DNA of 64,000 nt from NCBI GenBank assembly GCA_024275515.1, contig JAJRYZ010000255.1, positions 8,890 through 72,889 of the forward strand, in the 5' to 3' direction. Of the stretch, positions 4,807-63,809 are shown piece after piece. A program made the position numbers and the translations under genes. Numbering within the stretch: position 1 is the first letter of the stretch; each line of letters opens with the position of its first letter. The notes under the pieces were generated by a model that was given only the letters and a program-made list of their open reading frames with translations, did no database searches and was not told the origin of the DNA. This DNA is from Spirochaetota bacterium. Lineage in GTDB: Bacteria > Spirochaetota > Spirochaetia > ARS1246.

Positions 4807-4808
4807 TT

Positions 4809-10691: not shown

Positions 10692-10701
10692 CAAGACTCC
10701 T

Positions 10702-24531: not shown

Positions 24532-24563
24532 GCGACGTACTCCTCTCTTTACCCGTCCGCGAA

Positions 24564-27490: not shown

Positions 27491-27540
27491 CGTGCCATAT
27501 CACCATTCATAATTCACATGTCGCTGAATTCGGAAAGTTC

Positions 27541-39915: not shown

Positions 39916-40222
39916 CAATAATAAGTACCCGCTTCTCTCGTGTCAATGCTTTTCTGCGCTTATCCCAGCTTCAGGTGCTTCACGGGAAATCTGATACCGG
40001 CCTGGGCAAGCCTGTGTGCCTGCGGACTGCCTCTCCGAAACGCAACCGAACCGGTGGCGATCCCCGCCAAGCCTGAAGTAATATAGTACAAGTCGGCAAT
40101 GCCGCGACGGTGGTGGACCCGGATGCGGATCGCGAGTTTCCCTGCATGAACGCTCGAATAGGCCGGTCCGGCGGACATCCCTTTCGGCCGATCCCGATCC
40201 GGTGTCCCGCGGAGGCAAAGAG

Positions 40223-48004: not shown

Positions 48005-48155
48005 CTTACCTCGCCACTGTGAAGAATCTCCCCGCATTGTGCACTAATGTGCGCCGCGCTCCAATGTATGATATAAGCGATCTCGTTCTCGTCTTTCGAC
48101 CGAACAGATGGTGTACAATGCGCGTCGGACGATGCCTGCGCGAAGGAGCGTTTCA

Positions 48156-49865
48156 ATGATTAGATGTTTTGCCGAACACGAAAAGAGGAGTGTGACGGAT
48201 CTCGAAGGCATGTGGGATTTTACTTTCTTGGGAGACCTTGACGTCGCCCAAACCGATGTAGCGCGTATCGCTTACAACGACCGTATCGCGGTTCCCGGTT
48301 GTTTTGACGCGACGCCGAAATACGCCGGCTGCCGCGGCCTCGCGGCGTACCGAAAGCGGATACATTTTGATGACGCCACACGCCATCGGTTCACCTTTAA
48401 CGGCGTGCATCACCGGTGTCGCGTGGTTGTAGTGCAGGGCGAAAAGACGATCACCCTCGCAGAACACGCGGGGGGATTTACCGTCTTTTCGACCGACAGT
48501 ACCGACCACGATCCCGGCGCCGCGGACCTCGTCGTGCTCGTTGACAATCGGTTCGATTACGACCGATGTCCGACTCATCTCGATTACTTCGACTGGTATC
48601 ACTACGGCGGCATTGCCCGAGGGGCGGAGCTTTCGCGACTCGGAAATACGTGGATCGAGTCGGTGCGGATAGATACCTCGGACTTCCGCTCGAAAACGGT
48701 GTCCGTCCGCGTCGTCTGTAGAACCGACTCCGTGTCCGCCGACGATGAGGCGGCGCTCGCGATTTCCATAAATGACGATGAGATTTCCTCCTTTCCCGTC
48801 GCGTTCGCCGCCGGCGTTGCTCGGGTCGACGCCGATTTTACCTTGGTCGACGCAAAGCTCTGGTTTCCGGATCGTCCCGCGCTCAATACCGCACGGTTCG
48901 CCCTCGGGGATGATGATCTGATCGAGCGATTCGGCATACGCCGAGTTTCGATCGAACAGGGTGAAATCAGAATCAACGACCGTCCGGTCAGGCTGCTCGG
49001 TGTGTGCCGGCACGAGGCGCATCCACAGTTCGGCTGCGGTCTGCCCAAATCGATTCTTGTCGAAGACATACAACTCATCGAAGAGATGGGCTGCAATTTC
49101 GTGCGCGGTTCCCATTACCCACAGGACCCGGCTTTCTTGGATCTCTGCGACGAACGCGGGATCTGCGTGTGGAGCGAGGCGATCGGCTGGCAGCATACCG
49201 CCGAACATCTGAATGATCCCGACTTCATCAACGCGCAGGTCGTCGACATCCGCGAAATGGTAGCGACGTCATGCAACCATCCGTCGGTGATAATGTGGGG
49301 GCTTCAAAACGAGAGTCATAGCGAAGATCCTGCGAACAGACGAGGTTACGAAACACTCATCGGAGAGATCCGCTCTCTCGATCCAAGCAGACCCGTGACT
49401 TTTGCCTCTAATCACTGGCCCGACGATCTGTTTCACGATCTTATCGATATTATTTCGATTAACATGTATCCCGGATGGTACGACGGCGAGATAGGAGAAA
49501 TACCGGCAAAGATCGATGCAATCGTCGGTTCCATCGACGCATCGAGCTCGGGCGGGAAACCTATCATCATCAGCGAGATAGGCGCCGGCGCCGTGCCCGG
49601 CACACATGACAGAAACAAGACGCGATGGAGCGAAGAGTATCAGGCGGCATTGATCGACATTGTGATCGAACACCTGTTTGAGAAACGCGATCGCGTGTGC
49701 GGTCTGTCTCTCTGGCAGTTTTGCGACTGTCGAACAAGCGAAGAGGTGCGTCGGATCCTGTCTCGGCCCCGCGGATTCAACAACAAGGGCGTCGTTGACG
49801 AGTACCGCCGGCCGAAACTCGCGTTCGATGTCGTAAAGAGTCGATTCAACTCCCTTCGGCGATAA
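48156..49865 (+). CDS. Glycoside hydrolase family 2, beta-glucuronidase-like
   Basis: L.G.W.F, YGGI.R, GVCRHE, RGSHYP, WGLQNE (acid/base), ISEIGA (nucleophile), N.KG GUS signature (FNNKG). Confidence 0.88.
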   Translation: MIRCFAEHEKRSVTDLEGMWDFTFLGDLDVAQTDVARIAYNDRIAVPGCFDATPKYAGCRGLAAYRKRIHFDDATRHRFTFNGVHHRCRVVVVQGEKTITLAEHAGGFTVFSTDSTDHDPGAADLVVLVDNRFDYDRCPTHLDYFDWYHYGGIARGAELSRLGNTWIESVRIDTSDFRSKTVSVRVVCRTDSVSADDEAALAISINDDEISSFPVAFAAGVARVDADFTLVDAKLWFPDRPALNTARFALGDDDLIERFGIRRVSIEQGEIRINDRPVRLLGVCRHEAHPQFGCGLPKSILVEDIQLIEEMGCNFVRGSHYPQDPAFLDLCDERGICVWSEAIGWQHTAEHLNDPDFINAQVVDIREMVATSCNHPSVIMWGLQNESHSEDPANRRGYETLIGEIRSLDPSRPVTFASNHWPDDLFHDLIDIISINMYPGWYDGEIGEIPAKIDAIVGSIDASSSGGKPIIISEIGAGAVPGTHDRNKTRWSEEYQAALIDIVIEHLFEKRDRVCGLSLWQFCDCRTSEEVRRILSRPRGFNNKGVVDEYRRPKLAFDVVKSRFNSLRR

Positions 49866-49923
49866 CGACCGTGTCTATTGTATGCACGGCGGACGCGCCG
49901 GGAAAACAAACGGAGGAGTTTTT

Positions 49924-50760
49924 ATGCCCGCCCAACCCATGTCGGTGAACGAGCTCGAAGACACGGCAGTGACGATCCGTAAAGACATTATTGAGATGAT
50001 TTCGACGGCCAAAGCGGGACATCCAGGGGGGAGTCTTTCCGCCGCCGACATAGTGACGGCGCTCTATTTCCGCATCATGCGCGTGGACCCCGACAACCCC
50101 GACCGGCCCGACCGGGACCGCTTTATTCTTTCAAAGGGCCACGCGTGTCCGGTATGGTATGCCGCGCTCGCCGAAAGGGGCTTTTTCGACAAAAAGCATC
50201 TCGGCACTCTCCGCAGACTGAACAGCATTCTACAGGGACATGCCGACATGAGAAAAACCCCCGGCGTCGATATGACCGTCGGATCTCTCGGACAGGGAAT
50301 TTCCGCCGGCCTCGGAATGGCGCTCAGCGGCAAGCTTCGGAAGAAGGACTACCACGTGTGGGTTATTGTCGGGGACGGTGAGTGTCAGGAAGGATCGGTG
50401 TGGGAGGCCGCCATGGCCGGCCCACGATGGAAGTTGGATAATTTCACCGTTATCGTAGACAAAAATCGCCTGCAAAACGACGCGTTTGTCGATGAAGTGA
50501 TGCCGGTTGATCCTTTGGCCGAAAAATGGCGGGCGTTCAACTGGAATGTCGTCGAGATCGACGGTCATGACATGCGGCAAGTTGTCGACGGTCTGGAGCA
50601 CGCCGCCGCGACGAAGGGCGGGCCGACGGTCGTCATCGCGCACACGATTAAGGGAAAAGGCGTTTCATTCATGGAAAATGTACCCAAGTGGCACGGCGCG
50701 GCGCCGAACGCCGAAGAAACGAAGATCGCCTTGTCGGAAATCATCGGAGCAAGAAAATGA
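49924..50760 (+). CDS. Split transketolase, N-terminal (ThDP-binding) subunit, copy 1
   Basis: GHPGGSLS, DRFILSKGH, LQGH, GSLGQG, GDGECQEG...DKN, KGKGV...WH. Confidence 0.93.
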   Translation: MPAQPMSVNELEDTAVTIRKDIIEMISTAKAGHPGGSLSAADIVTALYFRIMRVDPDNPDRPDRDRFILSKGHACPVWYAALAERGFFDKKHLGTLRRLNSILQGHADMRKTPGVDMTVGSLGQGISAGLGMALSGKLRKKDYHVWVIVGDGECQEGSVWEAAMAGPRWKLDNFTVIVDKNRLQNDAFVDEVMPVDPLAEKWRAFNWNVVEIDGHDMRQVVDGLEHAAATKGGPTVVIAHTIKGKGVSFMENVPKWHGAAPNAEETKIALSEIIGARK

Positions 50761-51776
50761 AACGAACCGATGATTCTGTCTATAAATACGTGCTCCCGGA
50801 GGTGATCGGTTGCTTGCTCCACGGTGACGCGTACCAGCGGCTGGACAAGCAGGCGACGCGCCACGCGTACGCCGAGGCGATTATCGAGGTGGGCGAGACA
50901 AACCCGGATGTAGTCGTCCTTGACGCCGATGTGGCCAACTCGATCAAAACGACGGAGTTTCGAAAACGTTTTCCGGAGAGGGAGTTCAACTTCGGCATAG
51001 CCGAGCAAAATATGATGGCCGCCGCGGCCGGCATGGCTTCCACCGGTCTCATTCCCTTCGTGTCGACCTACGCGGTTTTTGCGAGTCTGCGGGCGTTGGA
51101 TCAGTTGCGGAACAGTATTCATTATCCGCGGCTCAACGTAAAAGTCGCCGCGAGCCACAGCGGAATCACGCCCGGGCCCGATGGAGTCACCCATCAGGCA
51201 CAGGAAGACATGTCCATTCTGCGAAGCCTCGCGAACTCCACCGTAGTCGCGCCGGCGGATCCCGTTACTACGAAAAAGGCGATTCACGAGGCCGCGGAGT
51301 TCGTTGGACCCGTTTATATCAGCCTGACTCGCGATCCGGCGCCGTATCTATACGGCGAGGATTTCCCCTTTGAGATCGGCAAAGCGGTCACTATTCGGGA
51401 GGGAAGCGATATCGCGCTCATCGCCATCCGCGACCTGGTTTTTCAGGCCTTGATTGCGGCCGAGACACTGGCACGAGAAGGAATTGATGTTCGGGTAATC
51501 GATTGCCACACCCTCAAGCCTCTCGACGAAACGACGATTCTGCGCGCGGCCGGGGAAACCGGCGCCGTCGTAACCGCCGAAAACAACGTGATTTTCGGTG
51601 GTCTGGGGAGCGCGGTGGCGGAATTGCTGGTGGAGAATCACCCGATTCCCATGAGGCGGGTCGGTGTGCAAGACACATTTGCCGAATCGGGTCCGTACCT
51701 GGAGGTGATCGACAAGTACGGACTGACCTCGCCGCACATCGTGGAAGCGGTGCGGAATGTGCTGGCACGGCGATAG
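50757..51776 (+). CDS. Split transketolase, C-terminal (pyrimidine-binding) subunit, copy 1
   Basis: ATRHAY, GIAEQNM, RALDQ, SHSGITPGPDGVTHQ, TLKPLD, GGLGSAVAE. Confidence 0.93.
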   Translation: MKRTDDSVYKYVLPEVIGCLLHGDAYQRLDKQATRHAYAEAIIEVGETNPDVVVLDADVANSIKTTEFRKRFPEREFNFGIAEQNMMAAAAGMASTGLIPFVSTYAVFASLRALDQLRNSIHYPRLNVKVAASHSGITPGPDGVTHQAQEDMSILRSLANSTVVAPADPVTTKKAIHEAAEFVGPVYISLTRDPAPYLYGEDFPFEIGKAVTIREGSDIALIAIRDLVFQALIAAETLAREGIDVRVIDCHTLKPLDETTILRAAGETGAVVTAENNVIFGGLGSAVAELLVENHPIPMRRVGVQDTFAESGPYLEVIDKYGLTSPHIVEAVRNVLARR

Positions 51777-51816
51777 GGACGGCGCACGAGACGACGCGGT
51801 TGTGGTCGGACCGTAC

Positions 51817-51845
51817 TTGACTTTTGCCCTAGCGGATACTAATGT
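51817..51845 (+). promoter_or_regulatory. Sigma70-type promoter of the lacI-family gene
   Basis: TTGACT-N17-TAATGT. Confidence 0.6.
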
Positions 51846-51856
51846 GGACTCACCTA

Positions 51857-51874
51857 AACGTTACCGTTAACGTT
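51857..51874. promoter_or_regulatory. LacI-type operator (autoregulation)
   Basis: AACGTTACCGTTAACGTT, CG-centred palindrome with one mismatch, just downstream of the promoter. Confidence 0.7.
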
Positions 51875-51899
51875 AATGGACGTCGAGACGGGCGGGAGA

Positions 51900-52895
51900 A
51901 TGAGATCACCTACCATAAGAGATGTGGCGCAAGCCGCGAATGTTTCAACCAATACCGTTTCGCGAGCCCTCAATAATAAGCCCGATGTAAGCCCGGAGAC
52001 CCGCCGAAGAGTTCTTGCGGCCGCGAAGGAGCTGAATTATTCGCCGAACAATCTCGCCAGGAGCCTCATATCAAAGAAAACCGGCACTTTGGGAGTCGTC
52101 GTCACCGACAACGCCAATCCGTTCTACGCGCGAATAATAAAAGGCATAGAAGATGTGGGAAGGAGACACGGGTACAGCATCATTCTGTGCAACACCGACG
52201 AGGATTCGGAACGTGAAGAGGAGGCAATCCGCCTTCTCCAACAGAAGCGTGTGGACGGGATTCTGATAACGCCGGTACAAAAAGATTTTCGGTATCTTGA
52301 AGTACTGCGGAACTATCAGAGTCCTTTTGTGCTGCTCAACCGCCATCCGAAGAATGAAATGGTCGACTATGTAATCAACGACAATGCGTACGGCGCGCGT
52401 CTCGCGATCGGGCGGTTGATCTCCGTCGGTCGCCGGAAGATAGCGTATATCTGCGGACCCTCCACTATATCTAGTGTTCAAGAGCGCCTTGAAGGATGTT
52501 TCGCCGCGATGGAGGCGGGCGGGCTGTCGCCGAAATCCCTTCATGTCGAGAGAACCAATTTGAAAATGGAGGACGGCTTTGAGGCAATGCAGAAACTGCT
52601 CGAGAACGACCGGCCGGACGGCGTTTTCGCTTACAGCGACATTCTCGCCATAGGCGCCATGAAGTCCATTCTGGAGGCGAATCTGAGAATACCCGAAGAC
52701 ATCGCCTTGATCGGTTATGACGACATCGAGTTCGCGAGTATGCTGGAGGTTCCTTTGACGACGGTGCGGCAGCCGCGGTATCGAATCGGAGAAAAGGCGG
52801 CGAATATGCTCATAAACAAGTTGAACAACAAGAACGGTACGGAAGTCGAAAGCGTTGTTCTGCGACCGGAACTGATTCTTCGAAAATCTGCGTAA
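51900..52895 (+). CDS. LacI-family transcriptional regulator
   Basis: TIRDVAQAANVSTNTVSRALN, YSPNNLARSL, IPEDIALIGYDD, PLTTVRQP. Confidence 0.95.
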   Translation: MRSPTIRDVAQAANVSTNTVSRALNNKPDVSPETRRRVLAAAKELNYSPNNLARSLISKKTGTLGVVVTDNANPFYARIIKGIEDVGRRHGYSIILCNTDEDSEREEEAIRLLQQKRVDGILITPVQKDFRYLEVLRNYQSPFVLLNRHPKNEMVDYVINDNAYGARLAIGRLISVGRRKIAYICGPSTISSVQERLEGCFAAMEAGGLSPKSLHVERTNLKMEDGFEAMQKLLENDRPDGVFAYSDILAIGAMKSILEANLRIPEDIALIGYDDIEFASMLEVPLTTVRQPRYRIGEKAANMLINKLNNKNGTEVESVVLRPELILRKSA

Positions 52896-53123
52896 GAGAC
52901 TGCCGTCGGATCGACGTGAATCCCGCGAGGTTGCGGCGGCAAATCCGTTTGGGTTCGTGGACGGAGGAAGGGATACCGTTGTGGAGTATCATATGGCCGG
53001 CGCCCGGACGGGAACCGTGGAAAGGATTCTTCACCGGATCGAGCAGGATCGGAGAGTCATGCACGAGATGTGCGGCGGAGCGACCGGGGGTGTCGTCTTC
53101 GGCGGGTTGACCGAGGCGGCCCG

Positions 53124-54560
53124 ATGAATCGGCCGAATATCCTTCTTTTATGCGCCGATATGGCCGGCGCCGCCGATTTCGGTTGTTACGGAAGCGTGTC
53201 CGACATTACGCCGAACATCGACGGCCTCGCCGCCGCCGGCGTGCTCTTTGAACAAGCCTACTGCCCGTGCCCGCCGTGTATTCCCGCTCGGGTTTCCCTG
53301 ATGAGCGGTCTCTACGCTCATACCCACGGCAAGATCGCGCACCTCAAAATGCGCCCGGCGCCGCAGCCGCCGCTTCTCCCCGAGTTGCTGTCCCGGGCGG
53401 GGTATCGTGCCGGAATTGTGGGAAAAACCCACTGGTGGCCGCCGACGGCGACGCTCGGTTGTGACGATACATACATTACCATCGACAATCATCTTACTCC
53501 GGAGCTCGGGAAGAACGACGCGTACATGCAGTTCCTCGAATCGAAAGGCCTATTCGAGTACGACGACGACACGTGGGAACACGAAAAAGACAAACTCAAA
53601 CCCGATCTGCTTCCATTCGACTGTCTGAAGGCGAATTGGACGGCCCGGCAGACCTGTGAGCTTCTTGCGACCTACGCCCGGAATGAAGAACCGTTTTTCC
53701 TTTTTTGCTCATTTGTCGAGCCCCACGGCGCAGGCAAGGTCCCAAGCGAATACCTCGAAAAGATCGACGCCGCCACGCTTCCGCCTATAATCGAGCGGAA
53801 CGGCGAGCATGAGGACAAGCCGCGGATTCAAAGACGGGCCGTTGAGCGCTGGACCGTTGAACGAGACGCAAAGGAGACATATCGCAGAGAGGTGTACGCC
53901 GGAATCGGGTTGGTCGATCAGAATGTCGGCAAAATTCTCGACACCGTGCGCGAGCTGGGTTTGGCGGAGAACACGGCGGTTGTTTTTTTGACCGATCACG
54001 GTGATCTGATGTATGACCACGGGTGTATCGAAAAGACCTTTCTCTACGAGCAGGCGATTCGCATCCCGTTTCTCATATCCGGACCGGGAATTCCATCAGG
54101 CGAGAGAAGGAAGCACTTGGTCAGTCAAATCGATCTTCTCCCGACCATTCTCGACCTCTGCGATATCGAAGTCGATTCTCTGAGAATCGAGGGGCGAAGC
54201 GTGCTGCCGATAATACGGAACCCGGGCGTCGACTGGCGCACCAGGTTATATGCCGAAGTCGATCAAACGGTTCATCTCAAAGGGCTCGTCTCGAGCGCCT
54301 CGGCCAAGATGGTCCGGGAGGGATCGTGGAAGTATATCTACACGCTGGTTGAGGGCCATGTGGTGGAAGAGGAGCTTTACGATCTGGACGAAGACCCCGA
54401 TGAGTTGTTCAACAAGGCCGGCCTACCGGCCCACCGGGAGAGGCTGCGCGCGTTTCAGGCCGACATCCTTCGGTGGTTGGTGGCCACGGAGGTAAACAGA
54501 TCGCATCCTGCGCCGGAGAATCACTACCCGGTGCCGAGCATTGACAAACGATTCTTCTAG
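53124..54560 (+). CDS. Cys-type sulfatase (S1 family)
   Basis: [20 protein letters not shown] (CxPxR), GKTH, EPH, TDHGD, EK...[19 protein letters not shown]. Confidence 0.9.
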
Positions 54561-54575
54561 ACGGTGGGTTGAGTT

Positions 54576-55589
54576 TTGAATAACAACATTCTTGAGATAA
54601 AGAACCTGAGAACCTATTTCTTTCTCGATGAGGGCACTCTGAAAGCGGTCGACGACGTCAGCTTCTCCGTGCGAGAGAGGCAGATTCTCGGTGTCATCGG
54701 GGAGAGCGGCTGCGGAAAAAGCGTTACCGCGCAATCGGTCATCCGCATAGTGCCTCGACCGGGGAAGATCGTCGGTGGGAGTATTCTTTTCCATCGGGAC
54801 GGTGAACAGATCGATATCGTCGGACTCGACGTGAACGGCGAAGCGGTCCGAGCGATACGGGGCAAAGAGATTACCATGATTTTTCAGGAGCCGATGACAA
54901 GTCTCTCTCCGGTTCACACGATCGGCAACCAGATCATGGAGGTGATTCTTCTTCATAAGACCAAGGATCGGAAAGAAGCGCGGGAGGCGACCATCGAGAT
55001 GCTGGCGAAGGTAGGTATGCCCGAACCGGTCAAGCGCGTCGACTATTACCCGCATCAATTGTCGGGGGGGCTTCGGCAACGCGCGATGATCGCGATGGCG
55101 CTCTCGTGCGGCCCATCGCTTCTGATAGCCGATGAGCCGACCACCGCGCTTGATGTGACGGTTCAAGCGCAGATACTCGATCTCATGCGGTCTCTTCAGG
55201 ACCAGTTCGGAATGGCCGTACTCTATATTACGCACGATTTGGGAGTCATAGCGGAGATCGCCTCCGAGGTGGTGGTGATGTATCTGGGCAGAATTGTCGA
55301 ACGGGCGCCGACATTGCAGATTTTCAGAAAGCCGCTTCATCCGTACACCTCGGCACTGCTCAGATCGATCCCCAAGCGCGGCGCCGAGGCGAAGAAGCGA
55401 TTGGAAGCCATTACCGGCACGGTTCCGGTCCCATTGGATCCGAGACCGGAATGTGGTTTCGTCTCCAGATGTTCCCGAGCCGTCGCGGGCCTGTGCCACA
55501 AAAGGATACCGGAGCTTGTCGAGGTGGAGGAAGACCACTTCGTGCGCTGCTTTCTCACGCACCGCGAGGAGGTGGAAACGAATGAATAA
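54576..55589 (+). CDS. Opp/Dpp-type ABC transporter ATPase (OppD-like)
   Basis: [35 protein letters not shown]. Confidence 0.94.
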
Positions 55590-56601
55590 GGCGACCGCTT
55601 CCCGACCCCTTCTCGACGTGAAATCTCTCAAGAAGTATTTTCCGATAGAAGCCGGTTTTCTGAAAAGGGTCTCCGGATTCGTCAAGGCGGTGGACGATGT
55701 CAGTCTGTATGTCAACGAGGGTGAAACTCTCGGTTTGGTGGGTGAATCGGGATGCGGCAAAACGACGTTCGGGCGATGTGTTTTGCGCGCTATCGAACCG
55801 ACCGAGGGACAAGTCTACTTCAGACGCAGCGACGACACCGTCGTAGACATCGCGCGGCTTGACAAAGTCGAGCTCAAGGAACTCCGCAAGGAAGTTCAAA
55901 TGATTTTTCAGGATCCATATTCTTCTCTGGATCCGAGAATGACGATTCTTAATATCGTCGGAGAACCAATCAAATCGAACAAGATCGCCGCGGGAAAGGA
56001 ACTCGAAGAGAGAGTCAAAGAATTGATGTCGGTGGTCGGATTGGAGGTGAAGCACCTCAAAAGATATCCCCATGCTTTCAGCGGCGGCCAGCGGCAACGG
56101 ATCGGCATCGCCCGGGCGCTGGCGGCAAATCCAAAGCTCATCGTCGCCGATGAGCCGGTGTCGGCGCTCGATGTATCGGTTCAGGCGCAAATTCTCAATC
56201 TGCTGCAGGATCTTCAGCAAGAATACCATCTCACATATCTTTTTGTTGCTCATGACCTGAGCGTCATCGAACACATATCGGACCGCGTGGCGGTCATGTA
56301 CGTGGGAAAGATCGTGGAGATGGCCGAAACCGCGGAGCTTTTTTCACATCCCAAACATCCGTACACGGAGGCGCTTCTGTCTGCGGCGCCGCAGCCCGAC
56401 CCCGAGCACAAGATGAATCGGATCATCCTTCCCGGCGAGGTGGCAAACCCCGCCGATCCGCCGTCCGGATGCTATTTCCACCCCCGGTGCTTGTACGACA
56501 AAAAGATCTGCAGACGCGAGGCGCCGGTATGGGAAGAGATTGCACCCGACCATTTCGCCGCGTGCCATTTTGCGCGTGAGTTTGAGCTTCGCGGAGACTG
56601 A
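55582..56601 (+). CDS. Opp/Dpp-type ABC transporter ATPase (OppF-like)
   Basis: [44 protein letters not shown]. Confidence 0.94.
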
Positions 56602-56669
56602 AAGGGCGACGCGACCGAGAAGCGCCTCGTCGCTCCGGATTGAGAACGACAGATCGGTGTCGGAAAAGC

Positions 56670-56698
56670 TTGACAGCGCGACGGTGACCATTTAGAAT
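56670..56698 (+). promoter_or_regulatory. Near-consensus sigma70 promoter upstream of the permease genes
   Basis: TTGACA-N17-TAGAAT. Confidence 0.8.
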
Positions 56699-56707
56699 AC
56701 CCTAAAC

Positions 56708-56731
56708 CTTACCGGTAAGCTTACCGGTAAC
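56708..56731. promoter_or_regulatory. Tandem LacI-type operators
   Basis: CTTACCGGTAAG-CTTACCGGTAAC; 56709-56730 is a perfect 22-bp palindrome. Confidence 0.75.
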
Positions 56732-56769
56732 GGTATTCATTTTGCGCACTCGATCGAGGATGCCGGCAT

Positions 56770-57756
56770 ATGGGCGTTTTTCTGGCGCGCCGCTTTCTCT
56801 ACATGGTCCTCATGCTCTTCCTTGTTTCTATCGTGTCGTTCATCATCATCAATCTTCCCCCCGGCGATTTCATGGATTCTTATATCGCCAGGCTGCAGTC
56901 GTCGGGAACGGAGATAGACCTGGCGACAATCGACGCGCTCAGAAAGAACTACGGACTCGATAAGCCCGTCTTTGCGCAGTACGTACTGTGGTTTTCGGGC
57001 CTTTTCGTGGGAGATTTCGGGTGGTCCTTTGATTACTCGGAGCCGGTCTCCAAGCTGATCGGGGAGCGTGTTGTTCTCACCGTCGTGATCTCCCTCGTCA
57101 CGCTGATTTTTACCTACGCGGTGGCAATACCTATCGGAGTCATCAGCGCGACTCGCCAGTACTCGTTTGTCGACTATCTCTTTACTTTTCTTGGATTCAT
57201 CGGTCTGGCCACACCCAACTTTCTGCTGGCTCTTCTATTGATGTTCTTCGCATTTCAATTCTTTGGGGCAACGGTCGGCGGACTGTTTTCGATGCAGTAC
57301 GCGAACGCGCCCTGGAGCATGGCAAAGGTAATCGATATGCTCCGCCACCTCTGGATTCCCGTCATTGTTCTCGGTACGGCGGGCACGGCGGGAATCATCA
57401 GGGTCATGCGCGCGTGTCTACTCGACGAGCTACGCAAGGCCTATGTCATGACCGCCCGGTCCAAAGGTCTGAAGGAAGGACGGGTAATCGTCAAATACCC
57501 CGTCCGAATCGCAATCAATCCGATTATCAGCACGATCGGGTGGCTTCTGCCGCAGATAATATCGGGGGCGGCCATCGTTTCCGTGGTCCTGTCCCTGCCT
57601 ACGGTGGGAAGTCTGTTGCTACGAGCGCTGCGTACTCAGGATATGTACCTGGCCGGCAGCATGATCATGTTGCTGAGCTTCCTCACGATAATCGGGACGC
57701 TGGTTTCGGACATTCTGCTGGCCGTGGTCGATCCGCGGATACGTCTGGGTGGATGA
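56770..57756 (+). CDS. Opp/Dpp-type ABC permease (OppB-like)
   Basis: LPPGD, YGLDKP...QY..W, GDFG.S, TARSKGL, DPRIR. Confidence 0.93.
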   Translation: MGVFLARRFLYMVLMLFLVSIVSFIIINLPPGDFMDSYIARLQSSGTEIDLATIDALRKNYGLDKPVFAQYVLWFSGLFVGDFGWSFDYSEPVSKLIGERVVLTVVISLVTLIFTYAVAIPIGVISATRQYSFVDYLFTFLGFIGLATPNFLLALLLMFFAFQFFGATVGGLFSMQYANAPWSMAKVIDMLRHLWIPVIVLGTAGTAGIIRVMRACLLDELRKAYVMTARSKGLKEGRVIVKYPVRIAINPIISTIGWLLPQIISGAAIVSVVLSLPTVGSLLLRALRTQDMYLAGSMIMLLSFLTIIGTLVSDILLAVVDPRIRLGG

Positions 57757-57773
57757 CGTGTGGAGGGCGCACC

Positions 57774-58916
57774 GTGGAGAGTGAAGCCGTGACGGCGACG
57801 GCGGAATCGAATTCCGAGAAGGCCGCGGAAGATCGATACTATACGGCCACCCAGACCCAGCTCATCATTCGAGCTTTCAAGAAGCACAAACCGGCGGTCG
57901 TGAGCGCGTTCATCCTCTTCCTCTTCTACGTAACCGCGTCGTTTGCGGAATTTCTGTCGCCATACGGGCCGTTTGACCGGTACTCGGAGTTTATTCACGC
58001 TCCACCGACCAAAATACACTTTGTGCACAACGGTTCGTTTTCTCTTCGCCCGTTCGTCTACCGCCAAATCCAAGTACTGGACATGGAGACTCTCCAGCGC
58101 TTCTACGAAGAAGACAAGAGTGAACCGTACTACATCAAGTTTTTTACGCGTTCGGTGGAGTACAAAATGTGGTCTCTGTTCGACGGCAACCTGCATCTTT
58201 TCGGAGTCGAGCAACCTGCTCATCTTTTCCTCTTCGGAACAGACGAGCTGGGGCGGGACATGTTCAGTCGAATCGTTTTCGCCAGTCGGATCTCTCTTTC
58301 CATAGGATTCGTGGGCGTCATTCTCAGCTTCGTGCTGGGTGCGACCCTCGGCGCCATTTCGGGATACTTCGGAGGCGTGGCCGACGCCATTATCCAACGC
58401 ATCATAGAGCTTCTCCGATCGATTCCCACCATACCTTTGTGGATGGGGTTGGCCGCCGCGGTGCCTCCCGACTGGACGCCCATAATGCGGTATTTCGCCA
58501 TCACCGTCATCCTGTCTCTCGTCGCGTGGACGGGGTTGGCCCGAGTGGTGCGGGGGAAGTTTCTCGAATTGCGCGAAGAAGAGTTTATTATGGCGGCGAG
58601 ATTGGCGGGAACGGGAACTTTCAAGATCATACTTACGCATATGTTTCCGGGCTTTATCAGCTACCTGATTGTCAACGCGACTCTTGCGGTTCCTCGGATG
58701 ATTCTGGCTGAGACATCTTTGAGCTTTCTCGGTCTGGGTTTGAGGCCGCCCGTGGTGAGTTGGGGGGTGTTGTTACAGAAAGCTCAAAACGTTCGGACGA
58801 TGGCGATACAGCCGTGGCTGCTCATACCGGTCATTTTCGTGATTGTTACGGTCCTTTTGTTTAGTTTCATCGGCGACGGGCTCAGAGACGCCGCAGATCC
58901 GTATAAGAGCGCATGA
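57774..58916 (+). CDS. Opp/Dpp-type ABC permease (OppC-like)
   Basis: LFGTDELGRDMFSR, SGYFGG, AETSLSFLGLG, GDGLRDAADP. GTG start after GGAGG. Confidence 0.92.
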   Translation: MESEAVTATAESNSEKAAEDRYYTATQTQLIIRAFKKHKPAVVSAFILFLFYVTASFAEFLSPYGPFDRYSEFIHAPPTKIHFVHNGSFSLRPFVYRQIQVLDMETLQRFYEEDKSEPYYIKFFTRSVEYKMWSLFDGNLHLFGVEQPAHLFLFGTDELGRDMFSRIVFASRISLSIGFVGVILSFVLGATLGAISGYFGGVADAIIQRIIELLRSIPTIPLWMGLAAAVPPDWTPIMRYFAITVILSLVAWTGLARVVRGKFLELREEEFIMAARLAGTGTFKIILTHMFPGFISYLIVNATLAVPRMILAETSLSFLGLGLRPPVVSWGVLLQKAQNVRTMAIQPWLLIPVIFVIVTVLLFSFIGDGLRDAADPYKSA

Positions 58917-59081
58917 TGAGTGAAAACCTGGAGCATAAGCGTCCGTCGGAATCAATGGTCTGGCGGAGAGAAAACCAACAGGCGCACGGAGGGAAAACAA
59001 AGGCCTGCATCTTTCCGCGTCGTTGCTTGTGGCGGCAGCTTAATGCGACAGATAGATATTATTAATCCATGGAGGAAAGTT

Positions 59082-61055
59082 GTGAGATCAGTTCTGAAAA
59101 AGTCGCTGACGTTGCTTCTCATACTGGTCGGCTCGGCGCAAATCCTAAGCGCCGGCGGCAAGACGGAAAGCGGCGCGACGACCACGACTACGACCACGAC
59201 GGCGGCGGTCGGTAAGTACAACGAATCGCCGATTCTGGCCGCAAAAGTCCAGGCCGGAGAGTTGCCGCCCGTTGAAGAGAGGCTTCCACCCAATCCGGTC
59301 GTCGTAGAACCGCTCGAGAGCATCGGAAAGTACGGCGGGACGCTGCAGATCGGCCTTTCGGGAACGTACTCCTGGTTCGGAGACGGACAGTCGGCCATCG
59401 GACCGGAAACGCTCTTTCGAATCAAGGCGGACTACAGCGGAATCGAGGCGAACCTGATTCGCGAGTGGGAATGGTCCAATGAGGGCAAAACGCTCGTCAT
59501 CCACTTGGTGGAGGGCGCCAAATGGTCCGACGGGGTGCCGTTTACCGCCGACGCCATTATGTTCTGGTACGAAGACATCCTTCTCAACGAAGAGCTTACG
59601 CCTTCCGGCCCGGCGCCCCGATGGAAGCCGGGAGGCGAGGTGATGAAGCTGACCAAGCTGGATGATTACACCATTCGGTATGATTTCGCCGTCCCTTATC
59701 CGGTTATTGAAATCATCTACGCGCACTATCAAGGAGGACAGTACACCTGGGTGCCGGGCCATTATCTGAAGCAGTTCCACGCGAAGTACACGGACAAGGC
59801 AAAACTGACGGCCCTGGCAAAGGAAGAGGGATTTGACGAGTGGTACCAGCTGTTCAACGCTAAGAACAGAATCGCCAGCGTAATTCCGGCGGCGATAGAC
59901 CTGCCGACGATGAGCGCTTACATGGTCGTTGCCTCGAGCCCGGAAAGCCATACGCTGGTGCGTAATCCCTACTATTGGAAGGTGGATCCGGCGGGCAATC
60001 AATTGCCGTATATCGACGAGGTTCATCTCGGCGTCTATACCGACCGCGAGGTTTTGGTGTTGAAGGCCATACAGGGAGAGTTCGACATATTCGGTCAGAA
60101 CAGCGCTCTCGCGGACTATCCTGTGTACCAGAAGAACAAAGAAAAAGGAGGGTACGAGGTATATAAATGGGTCGACGCCAATGCAAACCTGATGGCGTGG
60201 AACTTCAATCTAACAATCGACGATCCGGTCAAGAGAGAGATATTCCGAGACAGAAGATTCCGGATCGCGTTTTCGCATGCTCTCAACAGGGACGAAATCA
60301 ACGAGACTCAGTTTTTCGGGCTGGCAACTCCGATGGCGGCGACCGCGCATCCCAGGACCCCGTGGTTCAAGCAAGAATACGCCGATGCATACATCGAGTA
60401 TGATCCGGACAAGGCGAACAGGCTTCTTGACGAAATGGGACTGGATAAGAGGGGAAGCGACGGCTATCGTCTTATGAAAGACGGAAGAACGCTGGAAATA
60501 ACCCTCGAGTATCCCCCGGACGTGCACACGTGGGCGCCGCCGATCGTAGAGCTTGTCGTTGATTACATGAAGGACATCGGCATTAAGCTGAACGTGAAAG
60601 CCGACGACAGGACTCTGTACGGCCAGCGCGTGGCGGACAATCAAGTCGAGATGAACGAATGGGCGACCGTTGGATTCACCACCACCATGCTCACCGACCC
60701 GCGGTGCTTTGTTCCTTATCGGTTGGGGGATGAGACGATCTGGTACCGCAAGTGGGCCGAATGGTACGTGTCCGACGGCGAACAAGGCGAGAAACCTATT
60801 CCGGAGGTAATGGATCTTATTGGCTGGTATGAAGAGATGATTACGATCGTTGATCCGGTAGAGCGCGCCGCCGTGATCGATAAGATCTTGAAATCTCATG
60901 CGGAGAACCTCTGGACGATTGGAACCATCGGCAACACGGTGAAACCGGTGTTGGTCAATGTCAACCTCGGGAATGTGCCCAAAGAGGGCGTGCACGGCTA
61001 CGACGCGATTCGCATGCAGCCGAACCATCCCGAGACCTTCTTTTTCAAGAACTAA
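59082..61055 (+). CDS. Family 5 (OppA-like) solute-binding protein, of the type often binding oligosaccharides
   Basis: GELPPVEERLP..P, GKYGG, KWSDG.PFTA, RNPYYWKVD..GNQLPYID, R.A.S.A.NR.EI; GTG after GGAGG. Confidence 0.92.
   Translation: MRSVLKKSLTLLLILVGSAQILSAGGKTESGATTTTTTTTAAVGKYNESPILAAKVQAGELPPVEERLPPNPVVVEPLESIGKYGGTLQIGLSGTYSWFGDGQSAIGPETLFRIKADYSGIEANLIREWEWSNEGKTLVIHLVEGAKWSDGVPFTADAIMFWYEDILLNEELTPSGPAPRWKPGGEVMKLTKLDDYTIRYDFAVPYPVIEIIYAHYQGGQYTWVPGHYLKQFHAKYTDKAKLTALAKEEGFDEWYQLFNAKNRIASVIPAAIDLPTMSAYMVVASSPESHTLVRNPYYWKVDPAGNQLPYIDEVHLGVYTDREVLVLKAIQGEFDIFGQNSALADYPVYQKNKEKGGYEVYKWVDANANLMAWNFNLTIDDPVKREIFRDRRFRIAFSHALNRDEINETQFFGLATPMAATAHPRTPWFKQEYADAYIEYDPDKANRLLDEMGLDKRGSDGYRLMKDGRTLEITLEYPPDVHTWAPPIVELVVDYMKDIGIKLNVKADDRTLYGQRVADNQVEMNEWATVGFTTTMLTDPRCFVPYRLGDETIWYRKWAEWYVSDGEQGEKPIPEVMDLIGWYEEMITIVDPVERAAVIDKILKSHAENLWTIGTIGNTVKPVLVNVNLGNVPKEGVHGYDAIRMQPNHPETFFFKN
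59178..59201 (+). repeat. Eight-codon Thr run (ACN)8 in the SBP N-terminal linker
   Basis: ACG ACC ACG ACT ACG ACC ACG ACG. Confidence 0.8.
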
Positions 61056-61094
61056 GCACCGGCGGAATCGCCGAATCGTGCGACACTGTTGGGC

Positions 61095-61132
61095 GCCGCA
61101 GGGGGTATACACGATTATCCCCTGCGGCTTTT
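61095..61132 (+). terminator. Stem-loop with T-tract after the SBP gene (terminator or mRNA stabiliser)
   Basis: GCCGCAGGGG...CCCCTGCGGC-TTTT. Confidence 0.65.
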
Positions 61133-61150
61133 CTCCGAATAAGGTGAGTC

Positions 61151-61999
61151 ATGGACAAGGCACGGATAGCCATGCTGGAGCGCACGGCGACGCAGGTGCG
61201 CATCGATGTTGTGAAAATGATTACCGCGGGCGGCTCCGGGCATCCGGGTGGATCACTCTCTGCGGTGGACATACTCACCGCGCTGTTTTTTCACGTCATG
61301 CGCGTCCGTCCGGAGCGACCCACCTGGGAGGATCGGGACCGCTTCATTCTCTCCAAAGGCCACGCGGCCCCGGCGCTCTACGCCGTTCTGGCCGAGCGGG
61401 GATACTTCCCCGTCGATTGGCTCGGGACCTTCAGCGGAGACGGCAGCCGTCTGCAGAAGCACCCGGATATGAAGCTTGTTCCTGGGATCGAGATATCCAC
61501 CGGGGCGCTTGGTTTGGGTCTTTCGGTGGCGGTTGGAGTCGCGCTGGACGGACGACTGCGAGGAAAAGACTACCGAGTCTACGTCATGATAGGCGACGGA
61601 GAGAACGATGAAGGGCAGATTTGGGAAGCCGCCATGAGTGCGGCGCATTTTCGAGTCTCCAAGGTCACCGCGTTTCTCGATCGCAACGGACTGCAGGTTG
61701 ACGGTACGACCGACGAAGTCATGAGCCTGTCGCCTTTGAGCGACAAATGGCGCGCTTTCGGTTGGCACGTCGTCGAGGCCGACGGACACGACATGCGTCG
61801 GATACTGTCCGCCGTCTCGGAGGCCCATTCGGTAACCGATAGGCCCTCTATGATCATCGCCAAAACCGTGAAAGGAAAAGGCGTACCTTTCATCGAGAAC
61901 AGGGTGGAATGGCACGCGGGCTCTTTCACGCCGGATCAGGAAAAAAACGCGTTGGCGTCGCTGCCGCTGCAGGCGTCGGACGCCGAGAGACGGCCATGA
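61151..61999 (+). CDS. Split transketolase, N-terminal subunit, copy 2
   Basis: GHPGGSLS, DRFILSKGH, LQKHP, GDGENDEG...DRN, KGKGV...WH. Confidence 0.92.
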   Translation: MDKARIAMLERTATQVRIDVVKMITAGGSGHPGGSLSAVDILTALFFHVMRVRPERPTWEDRDRFILSKGHAAPALYAVLAERGYFPVDWLGTFSGDGSRLQKHPDMKLVPGIEISTGALGLGLSVAVGVALDGRLRGKDYRVYVMIGDGENDEGQIWEAAMSAAHFRVSKVTAFLDRNGLQVDGTTDEVMSLSPLSDKWRAFGWHVVEADGHDMRRILSAVSEAHSVTDRPSMIIAKTVKGKGVPFIENRVEWHAGSFTPDQEKNALASLPLQASDAERRP

Positions 62000-62955
62000 G
62001 TGGGGATAAGAGTCGTCCCGCGCTGGACAACATCTACGAGAAAGTGCTCGTCGAGGTGGGAGACAAAACGCCGGACCTCGTCGTGATAGACGCCGATCTT
62101 GCGCGGGCGTCTCAAACCAAGCTTTTCATGCAGAGGTATCCCGAACGCTATTTCGACGTGGGAATCGCGGAGCAGAACATGACCGGGATCGCCGCCGGTT
62201 TCGCCCTGTCCGGCAGACCCGTCATCATCAGCACCTTCGCCGTTTTCTTGACCAAGCGGGCGTGCGACCAGGTGAGCATGTGCGTGGCGTATACCGAGCT
62301 CAACGTGAAGCTCATCGGAATAGAAGCAGGATTGAGCTCCGGAAGAAACGGCGCCACCCATCAGGCGGTCGAAGATATCGCGATAATGCGCTCGATGCCG
62401 AATATGACGGTGATGGCGCCGGTAGACGTGGTGGAGATTCGGGAAGCCGTGGCGGCCGCGGTTGCTTATCGGGGACCGGTGTACATGAGAATGAGGAGGG
62501 GCCGGGTTCCCGTGATATTCGGCGACGACTACGAGTTCAGGTGGGGCAAGGGCGTGGTCATGCGCAGCGGGGGCGACCTGACGATAATCAGCACAGGCAT
62601 AATGACGGAGGAGGCGCTGTCGGCCGCGACGATGCTCGAAGAGCAGGGGATCGGCGCTGCCGTGCTTCATATCCATACGATAAAGCCGTTGGATGAGGAG
62701 CTGATCGTACGGAGCGCACAGAAAACCGGCGCGGTCGTGACCGCCGAAAACCACAACATTCTGGGCGGACTGGGCGGCGCCGTTGCGGAGGTCCTCGGCG
62801 AGCGGTGCCCGGTACCCATGAAGCGCGTCGGTATCAGGGATCTTTTCGGAGAGACGGGCACCACCGAGTACCTCTTCGAAAAGTATCACCTTCTGGCTCG
62901 GGACATAGTGGACGCTGCACGGTCGGTTTTGGAAAGAAAGTGCCGGACAAGATGA
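61996..62955 (+). CDS. Split transketolase-like C-terminal subunit, copy 2 (atypical active site)
   Basis: GIAEQNM, RACDQ, IEAGLSSGRNGATHQ, TIKPLD, GGLGGAVAE. Confidence 0.9.
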   Translation: MSGDKSRPALDNIYEKVLVEVGDKTPDLVVIDADLARASQTKLFMQRYPERYFDVGIAEQNMTGIAAGFALSGRPVIISTFAVFLTKRACDQVSMCVAYTELNVKLIGIEAGLSSGRNGATHQAVEDIAIMRSMPNMTVMAPVDVVEIREAVAAAVAYRGPVYMRMRRGRVPVIFGDDYEFRWGKGVVMRSGGDLTIISTGIMTEEALSAATMLEEQGIGAAVLHIHTIKPLDEELIVRSAQKTGAVVTAENHNILGGLGGAVAEVLGERCPVPMKRVGIRDLFGETGTTEYLFEKYHLLARDIVDAARSVLERKCRTR

Positions 62956-63012
62956 CCGCAGGTCCCGATCGCTTTTACCGCTCGGGCGGTCCGACACGAG
63001 GAGGGCAAAAAG

Positions 63013-63375
63013 ATGTATACGATTCACGAAGGGGACGTGGAGGCGGTGGAGCTTCCGGGGCGGAAGCACAAAATGATCATCGGTCCCGACAATTTCGGCG
63101 GAGCGGAGTCGATGTGTTTCGGAGTTGCCGACTTTCCTCCCAACGCGCACGCACCCGCACACGTACACGAGGTGGAGGAGGAGATTCTCTACGTCCTGTC
63201 GGGCGCAGGCGACATGTTCTTTGACGGAAAACCGGAGGCGCTTCGGCCCGGAACATGCATCTACGTGCCTCCCGGTGTTGAGCACAGCATCAACAACACC
63301 TGCGATGAAGTCCTAAAGGTGTCCTACGTGTTTTCACCACCGGTGCGGCAGGGCTCATACGACGCGAAACGGTAG
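63013..63375 (+). CDS. Cupin-domain protein
   Basis: PAHVHEVEEEILYVLSG...G....VPPGVEH. Confidence 0.9.
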   Translation: MYTIHEGDVEAVELPGRKHKMIIGPDNFGGAESMCFGVADFPPNAHAPAHVHEVEEEILYVLSGAGDMFFDGKPEALRPGTCIYVPPGVEHSINNTCDEVLKVSYVFSPPVRQGSYDAKR

Positions 63376-63395
63376 AAATAAGCAAGGAGAATGAC

Positions 63396-63809
63396 ATGGC
63401 GACAAAGAAGGCGATAAAAGTCAATCCCCACGACGTAGAATCTATTTCTCTCTCTCAGAGGGTTAATTATAAGATGATAGATCCCACGACGGTGGACTCG
63501 CGGCATCTCACCTTCGGGATGGTCGTTGTTGAACCGTTCGGCACGTGCGAACCCGGACATGCGCACGACGATCAGGAGGAGATTTTCTTCTGCCTTACGG
63601 GCAACGGAGTCATCATTGCCGATGACGATAGAAAGGAGATACCTATCGGACCCAAGGACGCCGTGTTTTTTCCCATCGGTGTGTACCATTCAATCAAGAA
63701 TCCGTACAACACCCCCTTGGAAGCGCTGTGGATTATTTCTCCGGCCGGCTGGGTATTCGACCGGAATCCCGAGATGAAAAAACGAGCGCAGAGGGGCGAG
63801 GAAGGGTGA
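63396..63809 (+). CDS. Cupin-domain protein
   Basis: GHAHDDQEEIFFCLTG...FPIGVYH. Confidence 0.9.
   Translation: MATKKAIKVNPHDVESISLSQRVNYKMIDPTTVDSRHLTFGMVVVEPFGTCEPGHAHDDQEEIFFCLTGNGVIIADDDRKEIPIGPKDAVFFPIGVYHSIKNPYNTPLEALWIISPAGWVFDRNPEMKKRAQRGEEG

Follow-up and report, generated by a model that had tools for sequence, protein, structure and literature searches.

Transketolases are major C-C bond-forming biocatalysts, and their engineering toward non-phosphorylated, acidic, or unusual aldehydes targets residues R358, H461, D469, and R520 (numbering follows E. coli TktA throughout, with the sequence taken from NC_000913.3). In E. coli transketolase, the triple variant R358I/H461S/R520Q is reported to have gained activity on 5-keto-D-gluconate (PMC12016104), and the H461S and R520V variants are described as improved on glycolaldehyde (PMC3657141). 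Split transketolases are acknowledged as under-explored (PMC13663882). Transketolase-dependent pathways have already been assigned for sulfosugars (the sulfo-transketolase pathway, sulfo-TK) and for apiose. In the sulfo-TK pathway, the split enzyme SqwGH is described as cleaving the non-phosphorylated, anionic sugars 6-deoxy-6-sulfofructose and 4-deoxy-4-sulfoerythrulose and passing two-carbon (C2) units to glyceraldehyde 3-phosphate (GAP), which yields xylulose 5-phosphate (PMC11659671, PMC9594981). Its partners are given as SqvD of the FucI family, SqwI of the RpiB family, and SqwF, an iron-dependent alcohol dehydrogenase (PMC9594981). According to Supplementary Table S6 of PMC11659671, the SqwH pocket in Clostridium sp. 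MSTE9 and Faecalicatena keeps the R358 and R520 equivalents, with Ala at S385, Asp at H461, and Asn at D469. The D-apiose pathway (background from PMC13001218 and PMC13753588) has its own split enzyme, AptA/AptB (E. coli SE15 ECSF_RS02710/02715). Here, we describe a 64,000-nucleotide stretch of DNA from a Spirochaetota bacterium (hereafter the window; contig C213:8890-72889 of a 4.2 Mb assembly in 329 contigs) that carries two split transketolases. The second of these, copy 2, retains every catalytic residue, but the far part of its pocket is rebuilt. It falls in a distinct, conserved, and monophyletic transketolase subfamily, termed type B, defined by the signature K99/A385/E461/N469, with R468 added in the subclade of the window.

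All three transketolase domains (PF00456, PF02779, and PF02780) are present in copy 2, split across two polypeptides encoded on the forward strand. The N subunit N2 (61151-61999, 282 aa) holds the thiamine diphosphate (ThDP)/PP domain (PF00456, 186.3 bits), and the C subunit C2 (61996-62955, 319 aa) holds the Pyr and C-terminal domains (PF02779, 144.5 bits; PF02780, 104.2 bits). Their best solved-structure matches come from the split Carboxydothermus hydrogenoformans transketolase (ChyTK): its N chain in 6yak for N2 (7.2e-99) and its C chain in 6yaj for C2 (3.7e-95). The ATG of C2 at 61996 overlaps the TGA of N2 as ATGA. Judging from the 6yak match, this junction, and the co-variation of K99 with E461 described below, N2 and C2 would assemble into an active heterotetramer of the alpha2beta2 type.

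Residues were mapped through HMMER alignments to human transketolase and to ChyTK and through MAFFT alignments with TktA, all of which were concordant. The segment in question covers C2 residues 1-123 (61996-62364), from D11 at the R358 position through the THQ motif (H122, Q123). Against human transketolase, D11 aligns with R318, E110 with H416, and R117/N118 with E423/D424. From ChyTK to copy 2, TREAY becomes LDNIY, ATHAG becomes GIEAG, GEDG becomes GRNG, and LQGHP becomes LQKHP. Relative to TktA, C2 carries the changes R358D, P384R, S385A, H461E, L466S, E468R, and D469N and retains E411, F434, F437, H473, Q474, and R520. In N2, the changes are G99K, I189V, and G262A, and H26, H66, H100, D155, N185, and H261 are retained. 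The ThDP/metal motif GDG...N, the cofactor-activating Glu E411, and the catalytic histidines H26, H66, H100, H261, and H473 are thus all conserved. In the phosphate clamp formed by R358, S385, H461, and R520, three of the four ligands are replaced and R520 alone is kept. D469, which we take to be the reader of the acceptor C2 hydroxyl, is an Asn.

The first copy looks quite different at these positions. Its C subunit reads KQATRHAY and SHSGITPGPDGVTHQ and its N subunit LQGHA, whereas copy 2 reads RPALDNIY and IEAGLSSGRNGATHQ, in which THQ ends at 62364, with LQKHP in the N subunit. Copy 1 retains R358, S385, H461, D469, and R520 and departs only at the second-shell positions F434Y and E468P. 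An earlier reading of the DNA letters, the original prediction, had quoted these motifs for both copies and the LQKHP versus LQGH difference, and all are present in the sequence. The loss of the R358 equivalent, H461E, and D469N, which it had aligned by hand, are upheld by every alignment, and the cofactor motifs that it called intact are conserved. It overlooked S385A, E468R, and the retained R520. Its view of copy 2 as a natural transketolase-like enzyme with a remodeled substrate channel agrees with the intact catalytic set and the replaced distal residues. N2/C2 is predicted to be a catalytically competent accessory split ThDP transketolase. By fold and chemistry, copy 2 is a member of the transketolase family, but it should not be classed as a canonical transketolase (EC 2.2.1.1) of the pentose-phosphate pathway.

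The remodeled pocket recurs in a defined group of proteins. A homologue search of 5.8 billion proteins gave 8000 scored candidates, of which the best 120 were considered; among these, 12 clusters are 61-80% identical to C2, and the next matches reach at most 57%. The E...SGRNG pattern occurs in 18 of the 59 best homologues tabulated, in the form [IVM]E[AP]G[LI]SSGRNGA[ST]HQ together with DL[AQS]RA[ST] and Y[MLF]R[MVI][RQP]R. E110, R117, N118, H122, Q123, R37, A38, and R168 are invariant in an alignment of 19 sequences. On the N subunit, LQKH (K99) is found in 17 of 17 proteins paired with E461/N469 C subunits, the window included. It occurs in 0 of 12 N subunits of other types, all of which have Gly (type A, the group of copy 1, with copy 1 included, 7; canonical, 4; an alphaproteobacterial H461/R468/N469 type, 2). 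Because the pattern is shared by 18 of 59 homologues, the pocket columns are invariant, and K99 accompanies them, the signature is not a product of chance. Position 358 is variable across E461/N469 sequences (D, A, N, Y, T, M, K, L, E, S, I, or Q), and Asp at this position is peculiar to the window protein. R468 is limited to one subclade; in a broader group drawn from Acidobacteriota and certain Anaerolineae, position 468 is G, S, N, or H, and K99, A385, E461, N469, and R520 are retained.

Pairing between the subunits extends beyond type B. G99 occurs with H461 in canonical, type-A, and alphaproteobacterial H461/R468/N469 enzymes (read from paired subunits), with N461 in AptAB, and with Y461 at loci L133, L135, and L136. 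K99 occurs with E461 in type B and with Y461 at L140, and S99 occurs with D461 in a group carrying D461/N469. Since the residue at 99 tracks the residue at 461 across paired subunits, the pattern suggests that the two positions lie near each other or are functionally coupled. The L140 enzyme (genome G012; A358/A385/Y461/E468/N469/K520, with Lys99 in a PKH motif of the N subunit) indicates that K99 is not exclusive to E461 enzymes.

In a tree of 181 C subunits (FastTree, LG+gamma, single run, all rows kept), the 21 E461/N469 sequences form one clade with an SH-like support of 0.959 and zero intruders. This clade is nested in a larger one (n=62, support 0.989), made up of the 54 sequences with Y461, D461/N469, or E461 and 8 bearing other signatures; all 83 H461/D469 sequences fall outside it. 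When 1.84 billion representatives at 50% identity were searched with a profile, 36,101 matched at E<=1e-3. The signatures at 461/468/469 were read in the best 150 of these: HED (canonical) in 36, HPD (type-A-like) in 28, DLN in 5, and ERN (type B) in 2. The remaining matches among the best 150 show many Y461, D461, N469, T469, and other combinations, so that split-transketolase pockets are highly diverse. Most of these remaining pockets presumably represent uncharacterized specificities.

Type B is also scarce across genomes. A motif scan of one genome per species across 185,579 species found 39 loci, 13 of them with a type-B C subunit and 2 more partial; the type-B loci come mostly from Anaerolineae, plus one Bacillota metagenome-assembled genome (MAG). 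A metagenome scan gave 80 loci with identities up to about 52%, 4 of which carry the type-B motif, one of them long (L052). Within the window's own class, 40 genomes were covered, and none of their 9 best-matching loci has E461/N469. Because few loci appear in the scans and none among those of the same class, the family is small and patchy, which fits an accessory distribution. Two other pocket types emerged alongside. Four loci of the window's class (L137, L138, L139, and L141; genomes G023, G025, G010, and G039) encode split transketolases with A385/D461/N469/R520 and the N motif LPSH, and these signatures hint at pathways of the sulfo-TK type in the class. Alphaproteobacteria MAGs, at least two of them labeled sheep rumen or uncultured gut, share a split transketolase with the pocket AHIGVGSGRNGATHQ (L041-L044 and L046), in which H461 is kept together with R468, N469, R520A, and R358M. 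Its conserved cluster (DXS-like, weakly DIT1/PvcA-like, and RidA-family proteins, a methyltransferase, and an alpha/beta hydrolase) looks more like a biosynthetic cluster than a catabolic one.

In E. coli transketolase, R520 is described as salt-bridged to E468 (Strafford 2012, PMC3657141). The same source gives hydrogen bonds from D469 to H26 and R91 of the other monomer, and distances of 6.4 Å from D469 to H461 and 7 Å to R520. In type B, negative charge has shifted from 468/469 to 461 and positive charge from 358 to 468 and to 99, where the new Lys adjoins H100 of the other subunit. Basic residues therefore appear to persist in the pocket, with the acidic positions reshuffled. The term charge-reversed, used in the original prediction, is misleading, given that R520 is kept, E468 has become Arg, K99 and R384 are gained, and D358 is confined to the window protein. 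That prediction had set compensating basic residues against itself, and the presence of R520, R468, K99, and R384 comes close to the scenario it described. The remodeling stands; charge reversal is too simple a description, and the amino acceptor has no direct support.

Under that amino-acceptor proposal, acidic residues would bind the ammonium group of a cationic aldehyde, or the enzyme would accept L-configured or 2-deoxy aldehydes. E461, and D358 in the window protein, do add negative charge, and D469N could alter how the acceptor C2 substituent is read. A SIS-domain protein resembling the GlmS C-terminal region also adjoins the Acidobacteriota members of the wider family. The proposal nonetheless appears extremely improbable. 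D358 is not conserved, and basic residues have been gained at 468, 99, and 384. SqwH, with Asp461 and Asn469, handles an anionic D-configured sulfosugar, so that Asn469 together with an acidic residue at 461 need not mean a cationic substrate. Moreover, none of the genes seen in the clusters of the R468 subclade encodes an aminotransferase, a deaminase, or an N-acetyl-sugar enzyme or otherwise points to amino sugars.

Both split enzymes of the window are accessory, because a canonical full-length transketolase is encoded in each of the two genomes checked. In the window genome, it lies on contig C241 as a 673-aa frame (PF00456, 440.8 bits). Pelolinea submarina has a full-length transketolase, type A, type B, and two more split transketolases. 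The description of copy 2 as a second transketolase thus holds among the split copies only. Type A forms its own group, with the pocket SH[GS]G[IL]TP..DGVTHQ, all phosphate ligands kept, F434Y, and P, N, or S in place of E468. Its loci include window 49882-51776, L018:7131-9125, L014:7299-9111, and L052:7298-9172, and in several Anaerolineae the two halves are fused into one protein of 624-664 aa.

Type B sits in a conserved gene neighborhood. Neighbors were counted at 20 loci of the R468 (E...SGRNG) type, window included, several of the neighbor-less ones being contigs of 1.6-2.4 kb. At least one cupin is present in 15 of these loci, an IolO-like TIM barrel in 12, and a type-A transketolase directly upstream of type B in 11; in the window, type A lies 10 kb upstream in the same co-directional array. 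Also recurrent are URO-D/MtaA-like proteins, a lactonase-like protein of the metallo-beta-lactamase (MBL) fold, LacI regulators, and sugar ATP-binding cassette (ABC) transporters. A LarA-like protein and a glycoside hydrolase of family 39 (GH39) occur in some type-B loci. The best NCBIfam match of the TIM barrel is IolO, a 5-keto-L-gluconate epimerase (150.7 bits, below the 300-bit cut-off), and its neighbors in the PDB are TM0416 and ketose 3-epimerases. Pfam families of sugar kinases are found in 0 of the 98 neighboring proteins scanned in the R468-subclade clusters.

One version comes from Pelolinea submarina MO-CFX1 (L018), a type-B carrier with a named strain and a complete genome, in which the operon falls in region 528745-549659 of NZ_AP018437.1. 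We take this strain to be in culture; if so, it is a directly testable carrier. Its gene order runs LacI, a homologue of the second window cupin (cupin B, L018:1352-1762), CUT2 ABC transporter (binding protein, L018:1835-2842), MBL-fold lactonase-like protein, MtaA/URO-D-like protein, fused type-A transketolase, type-B N subunit, type-B C subunit, a homologue of the first window cupin (cupin A), and TIM barrel. Cupin A homologues follow the transketolase in L018, L014, and L052, and a further cupin B homologue lies at L052:6805-7287. Just downstream of the Pelolinea transketolase operon, L018:12843-15982 encodes a fusion of a URO-D-family and a thioredoxin-like domain, a CobW-type GTPase, and a B12-binding corrinoid protein, which together look like a corrinoid methyltransferase system. 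Given these genes and the many MtaA/URO-D-like paralogues, an involvement of methylated sugars is a possibility.

Window contig C213 ends 23 nt past the window, just after cupin B, and another contig of the same genome resembles what would come next. A search of this genome with the Pelolinea TIM barrel led to contig C202 (C202:3-3651, locus L131), which starts with an N-truncated homologue, 38% identical to the Pelolinea protein. Next come a second TIM barrel, a Gfo/Idh/MocA oxidoreductase, and a URO-D-like protein, in the order that these genes have behind the type-B transketolase of the Bacillota MAG (L016). Because of this shared gene order, C202 probably continues the window operon across the assembly gap. 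Among the type-B neighbors, a Gfo/Idh/MocA protein best matches IolG (108.7 bits, below the cut-off), and TIM barrels have IolO and IolE matches. Further along, C202 carries a CUT1 ABC transporter and an AraC-type two-component system.

With a rough probability of 0.5, we read type B as a catabolic transketolase for a keto-sugar without phosphate. The sugar would be made kinase-free by the adjacent isomerase/epimerase-like enzymes, and its C2 units would enter the pentose-phosphate pathway. A non-phosphorylated substrate, as the original prediction had also proposed apart from its amino specification, is the most likely reading because three of the four phosphate ligands are gone, the core cluster has no sugar kinase, and SqwGH shares the A385/acidic-461/N469 combination. 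SqwH shows that this combination serves a sugar without phosphate. By homology, ThDP held by GDG...N, E411, F434, and F437 would attack the C2 carbonyl of a ketol donor HOCH2-CO-CHOH-R. H26, H66, H100, H261, and H473 would catalyze the C2-C3 cleavage, and the two-carbon unit would be transferred to an acceptor aldehyde. The part that would differ is the far end of the substrate channel, where the clamp of R358, S385, and H461 is dismantled, the E468-R520 salt bridge would give way to an R468/R520 pair, D469 becomes Asn, and Lys99 of the other subunit co-varies with E461. Earlier in the pathway, the metal cupins (possibly isomerases), the IolO-like ketose epimerase, and the Gfo/Idh/MocA dehydrogenase would generate the sugar, and no kinase would be needed. 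If the sulfo-TK pathway is a guide, the C2 units would go to a phosphorylated acceptor, and the type-A enzyme, whose phosphate site is intact, may perform this hand-over.

Several observations weigh against this reading. What the sequences show directly is the signature with its conservation and monophyly, the accessory status, and the conserved neighbors; substrate class, direction, and the division of labor between the two transketolases are inferred. R520 is kept and R468, K99, and R384 are gained, so the pocket may hold an anion, even a shifted phosphate, and the GAP acceptor proposed by analogy itself requires a phosphate site. The hidden Markov models used for the neighbor counts were built from the very loci counted, and the C213-C202 link is one of synteny. 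The tree is a single FastTree run in which authentic SqwH is absent, so that its D461/N469 clade is SqwH-like by signature only. Sulfatase and Opp-type transporter are seen only in the window's version of the cluster. The sister subclade, with G, S, N, or H at 468 (five loci: L021, L022, L023, L028, and L037), adds a further difficulty. Four of the five lie next to enzymes whose usual substrates are sugar phosphates: L021, L023, L028, and L037 all have SIS-domain proteins, L037 also has two ribulose-phosphate 3-epimerase homologues and a SorC regulator, and L028 has a ROK protein. L022 shows no sugar genes. This pattern argues against a phosphate-free substrate across the family as a whole.

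These sister-subclade neighbors keep alive an alternative in which type B still acts on sugar phosphates. Its phosphate site would have been relocated or reshaped around R520, R468, K99, and R384 to suit an uncommon phosphorylated substrate, donor or acceptor, such as a sugar phosphate that is shorter or bears different substituents. R520, R384, and K99 are invariant in the family, and E468, described as the salt-bridge partner of R520 in the E. coli enzyme (PMC3657141), becomes Arg. We consider this alternative unlikely. Besides the three lost ligands, position 461 is acidic, R468 is not conserved in the wider family, and the proteins scanned around the R468 subclade include no kinase. Furthermore, the clusters already hold a type-A transketolase with a complete site, and the genomes a canonical enzyme.

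The inositol-type neighbors raise a different question, namely whether ketol transfer is the reaction at all. A ThDP enzyme in this context could split a C-C bond of a 1,2-diketone or keto-acid, whether cyclic or acyclic, by a hydrolytic or lytic route along IolD-like lines in an inositol/cyclitol-type pathway, or it could release free glycolaldehyde. The IolG-best Gfo/Idh/MocA protein, the TIM barrels with IolO and IolE matches, the cupins, and a CUT2 monosaccharide-type binding protein would all fit such a scheme. Yet the histidines that engage the C1-OH and C3-OH groups of the ketol donor in transketolase (H100, H473, H26, and H261) are all conserved. All of the Iol family matches lie under their cut-offs, and no IolB-type bicupin was seen among the neighbors. 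Such a reaction is therefore quite improbable.

The window's own version of the cluster is a co-directional array on the forward strand (48108-63809). It begins with a glycoside hydrolase of family 2 (GH2, 48108-49865), whose best NCBIfam match is beta-glucuronidase, below the cut-off. Directly downstream lies the type-A transketolase, copy 1 (N1, 49882-50760; C1, 50757-51776), approximately 10 kb upstream of copy 2. A LacI-family regulator (51876-52895) separates copy 1 from a sulfatase of the formylglycine type (53070-54560; PF00884, 164.8 bits), which is the first gene after LacI and matches the NCBIfam arylsulfatase model at 265 bits, under the cut-off. Five genes with Pfam matches to an Opp/Dpp-type ABC importer follow (54576-61055). 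They comprise two ATPases (54576-55589 and about 55600-56601), two permeases (56770-57756 and about 57816-58916), and, in the fifth gene (58920-61055), a family-5 binding protein. Between this last gene and N2, a consensus scan found a strong terminator-like hairpin (61095-61128) with a 13-bp stem, 9 GC pairs, and a T-rich tail. This element may act as a terminator or as an mRNA-stabilizing intercistronic hairpin, and given its position, the transketolase-cupin genes may form a separate or attenuated transcription unit. After copy 2 come two Cupin_2 proteins, cupin A (63013-63375, 120 aa; PF07883, 63.6 bits) and cupin B (63396-63809, 137 aa; PF07883, 48.8 bits). Both carry, by eye, the two metal-site motifs HxH...E and PxGxxHxxxN. 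Their matches are to generic Cupin_2 families only, and an Atlas search with cupin A returned generic cupin clusters only.

Elsewhere in the window, the regions 9231-11925 and 21295-36737 hold a second sulfatase beside a flavodiiron-like protein (MBL/ODP plus flavodoxin). They also hold a chemotaxis cluster (CheA-CheW hybrid, Hpt, CheR, CheB, and a methyl-accepting chemotaxis protein whose sensor domain is of the NIT type) and a hybrid histidine kinase of 1796 aa with multiple PAS domains. Three additional CUT1 sugar ABC systems come with AraC-type two-component regulators. Two open frames, 2467-4953 (reverse strand, 828 aa) and 40202-42685 (forward strand, 827 aa), have no Pfam match at 1e-8.

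Within the reading of type B as a kinase-free catabolic transketolase, the candidate substrates would be a neutral keto-sugar or, somewhat likelier, an acid keto-sugar, with either a carboxylate or a sulfonate-like anion as in SqwGH. The lean toward an acid sugar follows from the IolO-like TIM barrel, from the lactonase-like, LarA-like, and GH39 proteins of some loci, from the glucuronidase-like GH2 and the sulfatase of the window, and from the basic residues that persist in the pocket. The reported gain of the R358I/H461S/R520Q variant on 5-keto-D-gluconate (PMC12016104) points in the same direction. A more specific proposal, tentative and rather unlikely as a whole, is a previously undescribed kinase-free acid-sugar pathway composed of type B and type A, the cupins, the epimerase, the second TIM barrel, the Gfo/Idh/MocA protein, and URO-D-like proteins. 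In this pathway, K99-E461 and R468/R520 would be a naturally evolved way to bind a carboxylate. A hexulosonate derived from uronate and set free from sulfated, glucuronide-containing glycans is one candidate for the sugar. Following the sulfo-TK model, the keto-acid would be cut to C2 units that enter the pentose-phosphate pathway as xylulose 5-phosphate, leaving a small acid, for instance glyoxylate or tartronate/tartrate semialdehyde.

No description of the K99/E461/N469 transketolase or its cluster was found in full-text literature searches, although a survey of split transketolases outside its coverage (Tonoli et al., ChemBioChem 2025) may list such sequences. The signature, the two-transketolase architecture, and the partner set appear undescribed; SqwGH and AptAB are precedents as specialized split transketolases. 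Positions 358, 461, and 469, altered in type B, are among those targeted by engineering. Type B thus represents a natural, co-adapted two-subunit solution that could serve as a starting scaffold and as a guide to tolerated combinations. In addition, a conserved two-transketolase cluster without a core kinase suggests that Anaerolineae and other anaerobes living on complex glycans have one more, as yet unassigned way of degrading sugars.

Among known systems, ChyTK is the best solved match. Its domains are divided in the same way, and it agrees with type B in its ThDP, metal, and catalytic residues; type B presumably shares its alpha2beta2 assembly. However, ChyTK is canonical at TREAY, DLSKS, ATHAG, GEDG, and LQGHP (R358, S385, H461, E468, D469, and G99), all of which are changed in type B. 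Single-polypeptide enzymes of the DXP_synthase_N type are described as having H100 replaced by Phe or Tyr (PMC13663882, PMC7661550). That identity was rejected for copy 2, in which the corresponding match reaches 27.6 bits versus 186 for Transketolase_N, the polypeptides are split, and H100 is kept. The engineered TktA variants (H461S, R520V, A29E, and R358I/H461S/R520Q) find comparable natural changes at 358 and 461 in type B. In contrast, the laboratory variants lose R520 and lack K99, R468, and N469, whereas type B co-varies across two subunits.

AptAB resembles type B as an accessory split transketolase with a remodeled pocket in a sugar-catabolic cluster. Its pocket differs (R358A, S385T, F434A, H461N, D469L, Q474H, and R520G, with G99 kept), and its cluster includes an FGGY kinase (aplK), given which its substrate is presumably phosphorylated. 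The type-B neighbors scanned contain no FGGY kinase. In the 181-sequence tree, AptAB falls outside both the type-B clade and the n=62 clade, and identity with AptAB was rejected on pocket signature and kinase context.

SqwGH comes closest. Both are accessory catabolic split N + C ThDP transketolases, and both share A385, an acidic residue at 461, N469, and R520. Type B and the D461/N469 group are also nested together in one large clade that lacks His461 (n=43 at 0.80; n=62 at 0.989), and the sulfatase in the window cluster provides a loose link to sulfur. These likenesses could mean that type B is an isofunctional variant of SqwGH within a variant sulfosugar pathway of the sulfoquinovose type, a reading that we regard as very unlikely. 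SqwH keeps R358, which type B has lost and which is variable there, and it has Asp461 rather than Glu461, so that type B lacks the full R358/A385/D461/N469/R520 signature ('RAFDR' plus N). The N-subunit motif is LPSH in four D461/N469 loci versus LQKH in type B, and the two groups form separate, well-supported clades (0.999 and 0.959). Neither homologues of the FucI family (SqvD), the RpiB family (SqwI), or iron-dependent alcohol dehydrogenases (SqwF) nor SqwD with a sulfonate exporter are found among the type-B neighbors scanned. A sulfatase, moreover, acts on sulfate esters rather than sulfonates. Membership in the sulfo-TK pathway was rejected on the partners, the retained R358 of SqwH, and the separate clades of type B and the D461/N469 group. 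In place of the Sqw partners, type B is accompanied by two Cupin_2 proteins, IolO-like TIM barrels, and URO-D-like proteins.

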